This document shows, piece after piece, positions 52,171 to 56,438 of a DNA stretch of 64,000 nucleotides. The DNA lies in the NCBI GenBank assembly GCA_024683775.1, contig GCA_024683775.1_4106.1. One strand, 5' to 3'. Every line of letters starts with the position of its first letter. Position 1 is the stretch's first letter. Under the pieces are notes generated by a model, which was not told where the DNA came from, searched no databases, and saw only the letters and a program-made list of their open reading frames with translations. A program made the position numbers and the translations under genes. This DNA comes from a phage.

Positions 52171-52345
52171 GACATTTGATGAGTGGTTTAATCTACACTA
52201 TAATATAAATGCAGCAGATATATACTATTTTAAGCTTGAATTGTATATATCATTGCGTAACCCAATCGAATACTATAACAACATCATCAATTGTGATGAT
52301 TTTGGTACATATTTTAGTATAGCAGTCATGGACAAAATAAGATGA
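52160..52345 (+). CDS. hypothetical small protein
   Basis: ORF. Confidence 0.35.
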   Translation: MHPKTFDEWFNLHYNINAADIYYFKLELYISLRNPIEYYNNIINCDDFGTYFSIAVMDKIR

Positions 52346-52512
52346 CACACAAAGAATGGTTAGATGAACTAAAATTTAAACATAATCCTTTTGGTTTTGG
52401 TATACGCCAAGGTCATTATGATGTGTTAAAAGATAAACAACTTTTCAAATCATTTGTACTTGATGAGGATAGTAATCACTGGTACATCTATGAGCTTGCA
52501 ATTAGGAAATAG
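52342..52512 (+). CDS. small MTHxEW-family protein (56 aa), paralogue of the 53846..54332 triplet
   Basis: Not in ORF track (under 60 aa); translation MTHKEWLDELKF...; ATGA overlap with upstream ORF. Confidence 0.4.
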   Translation: MTHKEWLDELKFKHNPFGFGIRQGHYDVLKDKQLFKSFVLDEDSNHWYIYELAIRK

Positions 52513-53619: not shown

Positions 53620-53737
<118 letters not shown>

Positions 53738-53741
53738 AAAA

Positions 53742-53828
<87 letters not shown>

Positions 53829-53845: not shown

Positions 53846-54006
<161 letters not shown>

Positions 54007-54010
<4 letters not shown>

Positions 54011-54167
54011 CACATGAAGAATGGATGAATGACATTAATTTTAGATATTCGGGTATCGGTAAATGGCTAAAGTATCATTGGGAATTCATTTCAGAGCCAC
54101 ATCTGTATGATAAACTTATCAACGATCCAGCATATGAAATGTACTTAATTGAACTACTGGTACGAAT

Positions 54168-54171
<4 letters not shown>
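54007..54171 (+). CDS. small MTHEEW-family protein (54 aa), tandem copy 2
   Basis: MTHEEWMNDINFRYSGIGKW...; ATGA overlap; first ~55 nt nearly identical to copy 1. Confidence 0.45.
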
Positions 54172-54763
<592 letters not shown>

Positions 54764-54767
<4 letters not shown>

Positions 54768-54792
54768 CTAAATAGTTCAGTACTGATATAAT
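54764..54792 (+). promoter_or_regulatory. repeated promoter cassette, copy 2
   Basis: TTGACTAAATAGTTCAGTACTGATATAAT. Confidence 0.6.
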
Positions 54793-54867
54793 GAATTCCA
54801 CAATCAGACGTATATGGTGTAAGTTACGTCGATGTAATCCAGAACAAGATCTCTGGTACTCTAGGAA

Positions 54868-55077
54868 GTGGTGAATGTTAACCTAGACGGGTTTGATAAT
54901 TGGACGATAGGCAATTATTACTTGACTAGCAGGTTTAAACTAGAGGTGACAGTCCTTTACCAAACTGGAAAACCGGATGGACTTTTATTTAAAAGGGTAA
55001 GGCGTGGAAATATGTTTACAGTAGTTGCTTTTAGTAGCCTGTACGCCCCACGTAAAGGTAGCCGAAAGGCAAGTTAA
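54868..55077 (+). CDS. hypothetical small basic protein (doubtful; region may instead be an RNA)
   Basis: ORF lies in a GC-richer segment with hairpins such as GCCGAAAGGC. Confidence 0.25.
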   Translation: MVNVNLDGFDNWTIGNYYLTSRFKLEVTVLYQTGKPDGLLFKRVRRGNMFTVVAFSSLYAPRKGSRKAS

Positions 55078-55155
55078 AACGGGTGGTTATAAAGCTGAAT
55101 TAACAGCGGCGTTTAAAAGCGTCACCATCCATTTTTTTTAATTAAAGTTGGTGAT

Positions 55156-55533
<378 letters not shown>

Positions 55534-55544
55534 GATTAAGTACT

Positions 55545-56109
<565 letters not shown>

Positions 56110-56125
56110 ATCAGTACTTTATTAT

Positions 56126-56258
<133 letters not shown>

Positions 56259-56262
56259 AATC

Positions 56263-56352
56263 GGTCCCGTTGCCTAGCGTCCGAAGGCAGCCGACTCATA
56301 ATCGGTCACAGTTAATGACACACCACTGGTTAGAATCCAGTCGGGACCACCA
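56263..56352 (+). tRNA. tRNA-like, anticodon CAT, atypical long variable region and T loop TTAGAAT
   Basis: Acceptor GGTCCCG/CGGGACC, anticodon arm GCCGA-CTCATAA-TCGGT, encoded CCA. Confidence 0.5.
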
Positions 56353-56356
56353 ATTA

Positions 56357-56429
56357 GACTCTGTAGTTCAGTTGGTAGAACGCTTCACTCATAATGAAGA
56401 AGTCGCTGGTTCAATCCCAGTACTGACCA
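56357..56429 (+). tRNA. tRNA-like, anticodon CAT; acceptor stem not pairable by eye (possible pseudo-tRNA)
   Basis: Canonical D arm TAGTTCAGTTGGTAGAAC, anticodon arm CTTCA-CTCATAA-TGAAG, T arm GCTGG-TTCAATC-CCAGT. Confidence 0.45.
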
Positions 56430-56438
56430 CAAAAAAAA

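Follow-up and report, generated by a model that had tools for sequence, protein, structure and literature searches.

Two putative tandem structured RNAs in a jumbo coliphage, one from a hitherto undescribed family found in tRNA clusters of phages

Results

A promoter-to-terminator unit in a jumbo coliphage genome

We consider here a 64,000-nucleotide (nt) stretch of phage DNA (NCBI GenBank assembly GCA_024683775.1, contig GCA_024683775.1_4106.1; hereafter, the window), and within it a unit of some 350 base pairs (bp) at 54793-55140 that a preliminary description, made from the sequence alone, had taken to run from a promoter to a terminator and to hold either a small open reading frame (ORF) or, preferably, a stable structured RNA. 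As we will argue below, comparison with related phages indicates that the unit comprises two tandem, independent non-coding RNA (ncRNA) genes on the + strand, which we refer to as RNA-1 and RNA-2 (Table 1). The surrounding region (54300-55700) is 94-99% identical to approximately 20 jumbo coliphage genomes of the 121Q/PBECO4 type (Asteriusvirus). Seven transfer RNA (tRNA) genes lie within 6 kb of the unit on the same strand of this window; within 54793-55140 itself, ARAGORN and Rfam find no tRNA or transfer-messenger RNA.

The individual features named in the preliminary description are all present. The upstream promoter matches 11 of 12 consensus positions, the GNRA hairpin has the sequence GCCGAAAGGC, and the hairpin plus T-run at the end of the unit consists of the hairpin GGCGUUUAAAAGCGUC, a 7-bp closing stem that encloses it (55081-55087 with 55124-55130), and eight T residues after that stem. 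The branching of this structure and its G-U pairs explain why a consensus terminator scan called no terminator at 55081-55139. The unit is also richer in G+C (GC) than its surroundings, at 0.39-0.41 across 54800-55099 vs 0.30-0.33 in both flanks, a rise that is genuine but modest. What lifts the unit beyond chance is conservation and covariation across phage families, not thermodynamic stability: the minimum free energy z-score, from a folding tool that ignores pseudoknots, is -1.61 for the unit as a whole, and RNA-1 and RNA-2 score -0.89 and -2.53, respectively. We note in passing that the 29-nt promoter at 54764-54792 has a near-identical copy at 54343-54370, 420 bp away (common form TTGACTAAATAGTTCAGTACTG[T/A]ATAAT), and that promoters of this type recur in relatives before RNA-1, RNA-2, and small ORFs.

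Table 1. Features of the RNA unit and related loci. Positions are those of the window unless a locus handle precedes them; structural assignments are predictions.
Feature	Position	Strand	Description
Sigma-70-type promoter	54764-54792	+	TTGACT, 17 bases, TATAAT; TG ahead of the -10 hexamer (extended -10)
RNA-1	54794-54983	+	Putative structured ncRNA of ~190 nt; undescribed family linked to phage tRNA clusters
Pseudoknot B, 5' strand	54798-54801	+	CCAC; partner GUGG at 54868-54871 in the H3 loop
H1 hairpin	54803-54833	+	AUC-A-GACGUA / UACGUCGAU; 12-nt loop with GGYG motif
H2 hairpin	54839-54856	+	CCAG/CUGG
H3 hairpin	54860-54887	+	UCUAGG/CCUAGA; loop contains the pseudoknot B 3' strand
69-aa ORF	54868-55077	+	GTG start; very probably a chance reading frame, not a gene
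H4 long hairpin	54894-54920	+	Loop with GACGAUA at 54903-54909
Core	54921-54943	+	CUUG-A-CUAG-CAGG-nUnAAA-CUAG, nearly invariant (CUUGACUAGCAGGnUnAAACUAG)
H6 hairpin	54945-54961	+	GGUGA/UUACC; 7-nt loop
Pseudoknot A	54952-54955 with 54979-54982		H6 loop (GUCC) with 3' tail (GGAC)
Segment CUGG-AAAA-CCGG	54965-54976	+	Three competing partners
AU-rich spacer	54984-54994	+	Between RNA-1 and RNA-2
RNA-2	54995-55139	+	Putative structured RNA of ~140 nt
RNA-2, 5' hairpin domain	55001-55054
RNA-2, GNRA hairpin	55061-55070
RNA-2, three-way junction	55081-55130
RNA-2, U8	55132-55139
Three-way-junction module	55081-55139	+	7-bp closing stem, UAUAAA, hairpin nCUG-AAUURA-CAGn, second hairpin, U-run
Further module copies	L006:2443-2503; L006:4093-4149; L021:1754-1816; L032:1531-1593		In Alcyoneusvirus and EJP2
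tRNA-Glu starting with GCACCUAUCGUC	L003:3217-3240; L004:978-1000; L028:597-620

RNA-1 and RNA-2 occur separately in related phages

The division of the unit into two genes becomes apparent from natural rearrangements. In an alignment with Klebsiella phage RaK2, an insertion carrying a promoter (TTGAAC-17-TATAAT) falls precisely between the equivalents of positions 54983 and 54995, and at the same RNA-1/RNA-2 junction the promoter of the present phage group is repeated in full, as TTGAACAAAAAGTTCAGTACTGATATAAT, in a related metagenome contig (L021); a second promoter between the two RNAs is thus a feature of Alcyoneus-type phages. The promoter at 54764-54792 is shared by phage EJP2, where it precedes RNA-1 and then tRNA-Ser, without RNA-2, and by phage JNE01, where it precedes RNA-2, without RNA-1; in phAPEC6-type phages, the promoter and the initial 36 nt of RNA-1 are followed directly by the downstream gene. 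Because of these inserted promoters, and because RNA-1 alone, RNA-2 alone, or neither is found in EJP2, JNE01, and phAPEC6, respectively, the two RNAs are independent, dispensable modules. Of the discrete transcript of about 340 nt envisaged in the preliminary description, the structured RNA part thus stands, and the single RNA gives way to two independent putative genes in tandem. The phAPEC6 arrangement is a natural deletion of approximately 320 bp (L033:2501-2600; also present in G17, Sharanji, ECO103 4-12-1, and EC22.5-2), which removes RNA-1 past nt 36 together with all of RNA-2 and fuses the promoter to the homolog of the gene beginning at 55156.

These rearrangements also bear on a cis-acting role. 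The unit lies between a promoter and the gene at 55156-55533 and ends in a terminator-like structure, as would a leader (riboswitch or attenuator) controlling that gene. However, the downstream neighbor of RNA-1 differs from one phage group to the next (tRNA-Asp, tRNA-Ser, tRNA-Thr, tRNA-Glu, or RNA-2), and in phAPEC6 the downstream gene directly follows the same promoter without either RNA; we thus regard a leader function as very improbable.

The 69-aa reading frame is not conserved

The alternative that the unit encodes a small basic protein depends on an ORF of 69 amino acids (aa), which is intact in four near-identical Asteriusvirus relatives and is annotated as a hypothetical protein in some records. 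In relatives whose DNA is still 80-91% identical, however, the frame is lost after 16 codons (RaK2 and L021), 2 codons (Proteus phage PM2 and Shigella phage SdyM006), or 10 codons (Morganella phage Mm5). The ORF straddles the RNA-1/RNA-2 boundary, which is the site of insertion in other phages and separates two modules found apart elsewhere, and its product matches no Pfam or PHROG family. The lack of an obvious ribosome-binding site, already remarked on in the preliminary description, is borne out by analysis of the sequence ahead of the ORF, where no usable site is found: the sole Shine-Dalgarno-like sequence, AGGA, stops a single base short of the GTG. Substitutions in the region are compensatory in helices and not codon-patterned. 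We consider it extremely improbable that this ORF encodes a protein, and very probable that the unit specifies structured ncRNAs instead; the earlier preference for a stable RNA over the ORF is thus strengthened by the broken frame in five relatives and by strand-specific compensatory base-pair changes. As a practical consequence, the hypothetical protein annotated here in many GenBank records would be spurious.

RNA-1 recurs in the tRNA clusters of unrelated phages

By blastn, RNA-1 is found in approximately 65 of 50,697 phage records. Identity to the copy in the window is 97-99% in Asteriusvirus (Escherichia and Salmonella), 85-91% in the T4-like Bragavirus (Proteus, Morganella, and Shigella), 86% in the T5-like Novosibvirus (Proteus), and about 81% in Alcyoneusvirus (Klebsiella); in the T4-like Aeromonas phages of Ishigurovirus and Ceceduovirus, only the RNA-1 core is recognizable by blastn. 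One further copy is carried by a 120-kb IMG/VR contig (L007). No copies were found in E. coli genomes or in plasmids, and the strict core motif has no copy in 185,579 bacterial and archaeal genomes (GTDB). A looser motif gave chance matches only, with the loci L011-L019 proving to be coding sequence or unrelated, and the loosest pattern yielded no member among 100 of its 120 viral loci that were scanned with R1, a covariance model of RNA-1 described below. A stricter structural pattern returned known members only, and a metagenome scan only close relatives of the jumbo phages.

Two tRNA genes of the same strand flank RNA-1 in the smaller phages and leave it an interval of approximately 200 nt: tRNA-Gly and tRNA-Asp in Bragavirus, tRNA-Leu and tRNA-Ser in Novosibvirus, and tRNA-Pro and tRNA-Thr in the Aeromonas phages. 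Its 5' end lies there 0-1 nt past the encoded CCA of the upstream tRNA. RNA-1 follows a promoter in the jumbo phages and a stop codon in Morganella phage Mm5. No conserved protein neighbor was found between phage groups, and because the flanking genes of the carrier groups are unrelated, RNA-1 must have moved horizontally, passing between virulent phages that infect Enterobacterales or Aeromonas and are not related to each other.

In the record of Mm5 (Morganella phage vB_Mm5, PP397179; L028:597-915), four tRNAs are annotated antisense to RNA-1, and Rfam puts them on the RNA-1 strand; the strand annotation of the tRNAs in PP397179 appears to be inverted.

Covariation supports a pseudoknotted fold for RNA-1

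RNA-1 is predicted to adopt a fold of seven helices tied together by pseudoknots, and this fold is supported by covariation. The model R1 was built from 11 enteric sequences and a hand-derived structure; it recovers all 18 distinct RNA-1 copies, scoring the Aeromonas sequences at 58-74 bits and L007 at 80 bits, and rejects chance motif matches. Pseudoknots A and B were absent from the model used for alignment and were added for the count of pairs. On the R1 alignment with these two additions, the share of paired cells is 95.7%, and both sides have changed in 28 of 54 pairs; column shuffles give 83.2% paired cells (0 of 500 reach the observed value) and sliding of the pairing partners gives 23-38%. 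A hand-made structural alignment has 521 of 522 cells paired over the top of H1, H2, H3, H5, H6, and both pseudoknots. The + strand is assigned from G-U pairs and from the orientation of RNA-1 relative to promoters and tRNAs.

Helices persist across the phage groups as their sequences drift. H1 is kept with unrelated sequences (AUGCAU/AUGCAU in L007 and CGGGAUA/UAUCCCCG in the Aeromonas phages) and forms a perfect 9-bp helix in Mm5. For H2, SdyM006 and Proteus phage 1 have CCG/CGG, and L007 has a longer version capped by a cUUCGg loop. Five different strand pairs make up H3 (108/108 cells paired; four of six pairs doubly changed), and H6 occurs in seven strand variants with 90/90 cells paired. 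Doubly changed pairs account for five of the nine in H4, whose GACGAUA loop is invariant in 18/18 sequences. Pseudoknot B changes from CCAC/GUGG to GCAC/GUGC in the Aeromonas phages and to CUAC/GUAG in L007 (72/72 cells paired; 95.8% paired, with two doubly changed pairs, in the tool count). Pseudoknot A occurs as GUCC/GGAC, ACCC/GGGU, GCCC/GGGC, and AUCC/GGAU, with 71/72 cells paired in the hand alignment and two doubly changed pairs by the tool.

The nearly invariant core is best read as a compact H-type pseudoknot, in which a stem S1 (54921-54924/54930-54933) would interlock with a stem S2 (54926-54929/54940-54943). The S2 strands, CUAG/CUAG, become CAAG/CUUG and CAGG/CUUG in Ceceduovirus; S1 (CUUG/CAGG) is 100% paired, with C-G replaced by A-U in two sequences. 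Invariant bases cluster in loops and junctions, namely the H4 GACGAUA loop, the core, YCCU, ACCAAAC, and AUGG; with the stems drifting around them, this is the pattern to be expected of a binding or catalytic site. With four or five clades to draw on, an all-against-all covariation scan for extra tertiary pairs gave too much noise. The GACGAUA loop is also complementary to UAUCGUC at the start of tRNA-Glu (GCACCUAUCGUC) in SdyM006, Proteus phage 1, and Mm5; this complementarity is absent in PM2, none was seen in other loci, and it is probably a coincidence.

RNA-1 compared with known phage RNAs and ribozymes

An Rfam search, which the preliminary description had suggested, gave no match to RNA-1 or RNA-2. 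At the gathering thresholds of Rfam 15, only tRNAs pass in the window; with E values up to 10 over 54700-55250, the best matches are P31 (17.5 bits vs a threshold of 40; E = 1) and HIV-1 SL3 (E = 9), and over 14 homolog loci nothing falls on RNA-1 or RNA-2.

The closest parallels lie in the setting. The species 1 and 2 RNAs of phage T4 (rnaC and rnaD), for which "biological roles are unknown" (PMC3014915), are likewise small stable RNAs in a phage tRNA cluster, adjoining tRNA genes on the same strand. At 139 and 119 nt they are shorter than RNA-1, and rnaC ends in a tRNA-like T-arm and acceptor, which RNA-1 lacks. Searching the T4 tRNA region with R1 and its filters off revealed no homolog (best score 3.4 bits), and blastn and nhmmer gave nothing. 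Phage T5 carries eight stable RNAs (RNAI, RNAIII, RNAIV, RNA1, RNA2, RNA2H, RNA3, and RNAX), labeled "stable RNA with unknown functions" in its record, which are scattered among tRNA genes with HNH endonuclease genes nearby, and the T5-like Novosibvirus carries RNA-1 in the same kind of position. Homology of RNA-1 to any of the eight was rejected: the best R1 match in T5, at 16.5 bits, is a promoter-overlapping site without the conserved core, and blastn and nhmmer again gave nothing. Nor is there homology to ncRNA001 and ncRNA002 of the related jumbo phage PA5oct, which were defined by RNA sequencing. By analogy with the T4 and T5 RNAs, RNA-1 would be an undescribed RNA family of a known kind, the stable RNAs of phage tRNA clusters.

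GOLLD and ROOL are complex structured RNAs that are often phage-borne and near tRNA genes, and their structures are reportedly the subject of a bioRxiv preprint (10.1101/2024.12.08.627333). With lengths of roughly 600-800 nt they are much larger than RNA-1; they also occur in other bacterial groups, and they are in Rfam without giving a match here. Hepatitis delta virus (HDV)-like (theta) ribozymes, which have a nested double pseudoknot and are about 50-70 nt long, directly follow phage tRNA genes, and RNA-1 resembles them in its position after a tRNA and in its pseudoknotted fold. It differs in strand order, in being found also without an upstream tRNA, and in having no Rfam match. The HDV order P1-P2-P3-P3'-P1'-P4-P4'-P2' is not found, because the partner of the RNA-1 5' end sits inside the H3 loop, with only 2 nt (AA) between it and the H3 5' strand and 10 nt after it, leaving no room for P3 or P4.

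The same observations bear on whether RNA-1 could be a ribozyme more generally, either cleaving itself at its 5' edge to free the 3' end of the upstream tRNA or acting on tRNA precursors in trans. A start 0-1 nt past the upstream CCA in four phage groups, and a fold with several pseudoknots and invariant loop and junction bases of the sort typical of catalytic cores, would suit such an activity. However, the jumbo phages, with a promoter ahead of RNA-1, and Mm5, with a stop codon there, have no upstream tRNA to free, no Rfam ribozyme family appears at E values up to 10, and host RNase E and RNase P can explain both RNA-1 ends. Considering also the strand order described above, we judge a ribozyme to be decidedly unlikely.

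RNA-2 and its three-way-junction module

In the consensus fold of RNA-2, a 7-bp stem directly next to the U-run closes the junction. Full-length RNA-2 is limited to Asteriusvirus and Alcyoneusvirus; like RNA-1, it has no match among the T4 and T5 stable RNAs or in the bacterial genomes and plasmids searched. Its three-way-junction module recurs in RaK2, after tRNA-Ser and before RNA-1, and in L021 after tRNA-Arg, and in EJP2 the module and the GNRA hairpin lie between tRNA-Ser and tRNA-Arg. Nine aligned copies have 96.5% of their cells paired and double changes at 6 of 16 pairs, with closing stems such as GGGUGGU/ACCAUCC, GGAUAGU/ACUAUCC, and GGAUGAU/AUUAUCC. Because a U-rich tract follows every copy, the module probably acts as a branched intrinsic terminator and 3' stabilizer. 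In RaK2, the copy upstream of RNA-1 also provides a promoter for RNA-1 (TTGACA-17-TATTAT).

A counterpart of the RNA-2 5' domain, with 81% identity, lies in Kuravirus podophages within a GC-rich region of approximately 790 nt that carries no annotation (Escherichia phage vB-EcoP-XT18, L031:1014-1802, with the domain copy at 1501-1563). This region was considered as a relative of RNA-1 and rejected, as the RNA-2 5' domain is all that the two loci have in common. A tRNA-like T-arm and an acceptor with CCA form its end; it has no Rfam match and may be another large phage ncRNA.

Other genes around the unit

Several further features of the neighborhood were noted. Directly after tRNA-Ser(UGA) (53649-53738) lies a tRNA-like gene at 53743-53821 with a 7-bp acceptor stem, an anticodon loop with UCU (Arg), a normal T-arm, a long variable region, and a D-arm replaced by 4 nt. 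ARAGORN and a default Rfam scan both missed it, and the tRNA model run with permissive filters gives it 32.6 bits; in relatives, a normal tRNA-Arg(UCU) stands beside tRNA-Ser. Three tandem, overlapping 54-aa ORFs starting with MTHEEWM (53846-54010, 54007-54171, and 54168-54332) and a fourth, related ORF at 52342-52512 make up a small family of paralogs that shortly precedes the RNA unit. Downstream, an HNH homing endonuclease gene (55545-56102; PHROG 59, E 6e-49) separates the unit from the tRNAs that come next, and relatives differ in this region by insertion or deletion of the HNH gene and a tRNA-Ser. At 56164-56430, ARAGORN calls a 92-nt tRNA-Ser with anticodon ACU and, as tRNA-Met, a 90-nt tRNA with a long variable arm and anticodon CAU; a type II tRNA with a CAU anticodon is unusual.

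Discussion

We propose that the host RNA polymerase would transcribe both RNAs of this phage from the promoter at 54764-54792, with transcription ending at the branched hairpin and U8 of 55081-55139. In the T4-like and T5-like phages, RNA-1 would be part of a multi-tRNA precursor and would be freed by the enzymes that mature the neighboring tRNAs. The cut that frees the CCA end of the upstream tRNA would create the RNA-1 5' end, and the 3' end may arise when RNase P cleaves the next tRNA and exonucleases then trim as far as the terminal pseudoknot, where they stop. Mature RNA-1 would be stable and act in trans, binding a factor of the host or of the phage through its conserved pocket, and it would be accessory and not essential, plausibly belonging to a tRNA/translation module that sustains translation under host attack. 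RNA-2 would be a second, independent modular RNA, with its 3' module doubling as terminator and stabilizer. We infer the processing route and the trans-acting binding role of RNA-1 from its position, from the conservation of loops over stems, and from the analogy to the T4 and T5 stable RNAs. Taken as a whole, an account in which two ncRNA genes, tRNA-linked processing, and a trans-acting accessory role are combined seems to us somewhat probable.

Several points weigh against this account. No result points to a specific binding partner of RNA-1, and the loss of both RNAs in phAPEC6-type phages means that they are dispensable at least in that lineage. The 18 RNA-1 sequences represent only four or five clades, so that many of the compensatory changes are single events inherited by more than one sequence. 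By minimum free energy RNA-1 is no more stable than shuffled sequences, which is unsurprising for a pseudoknotted RNA. Finally, several pairings compete for the segment CUGG-AAAA-CCGG: a local hairpin H7, weak in the Aeromonas phages and L007; pairing of CUGG with 54940-54943 and of CCGG with 54853-54856 (88-92% paired, with one compensatory change each); and a long-range alternative (82% paired).

Two recent papers treat phage tRNA clusters as anti-defense loci that carry homing endonucleases and keep translation running under host attack (PMC11555353, PMC13096335). RNA-1 might, in this light, be an aptamer or decoy directed against one host defense, absorbing an immune signaling nucleotide or blocking a tRNA-cutting nuclease. 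Its residence in such clusters, its variable presence among close relatives, its exchange between phage families, and the HNH endonuclease gene 400 bp downstream are all in keeping with this idea; each of these points is purely circumstantial, however, and no known riboswitch aptamer in Rfam is matched, and we think a dedicated aptamer or decoy unlikely. A broader form of the idea, which is possible if rather unlikely, is that RNA-1 represents a new functional class of RNA fold: it would act as a ribozyme or, as an aptamer, bind with high affinity to a small molecule or to an immune or translation factor of the host, and virulent phages would trade it as a counter-defense cassette within tRNA arrays, with the H-type core and the GACGAUA loop as its active or binding site.

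Under the account that we favor, with RNA-1 as an accessory trans-acting RNA, the stable RNAs encoded among the tRNA genes of T4 and T5, known for decades without explanation, would gain a further, non-homologous example, and one that lends itself better to study. Because RNA-1 is common to five or more phage lineages, its fold can be defined by covariation, and unusually well. The phages that carry RNA-1 only, RNA-2 only, or neither constitute a natural genetic test. Since phage tRNA clusters are viewed, in the papers cited above, as counter-defense loci, RNA-1 would be a concrete candidate for an RNA-based counter-defense or translation-control factor.

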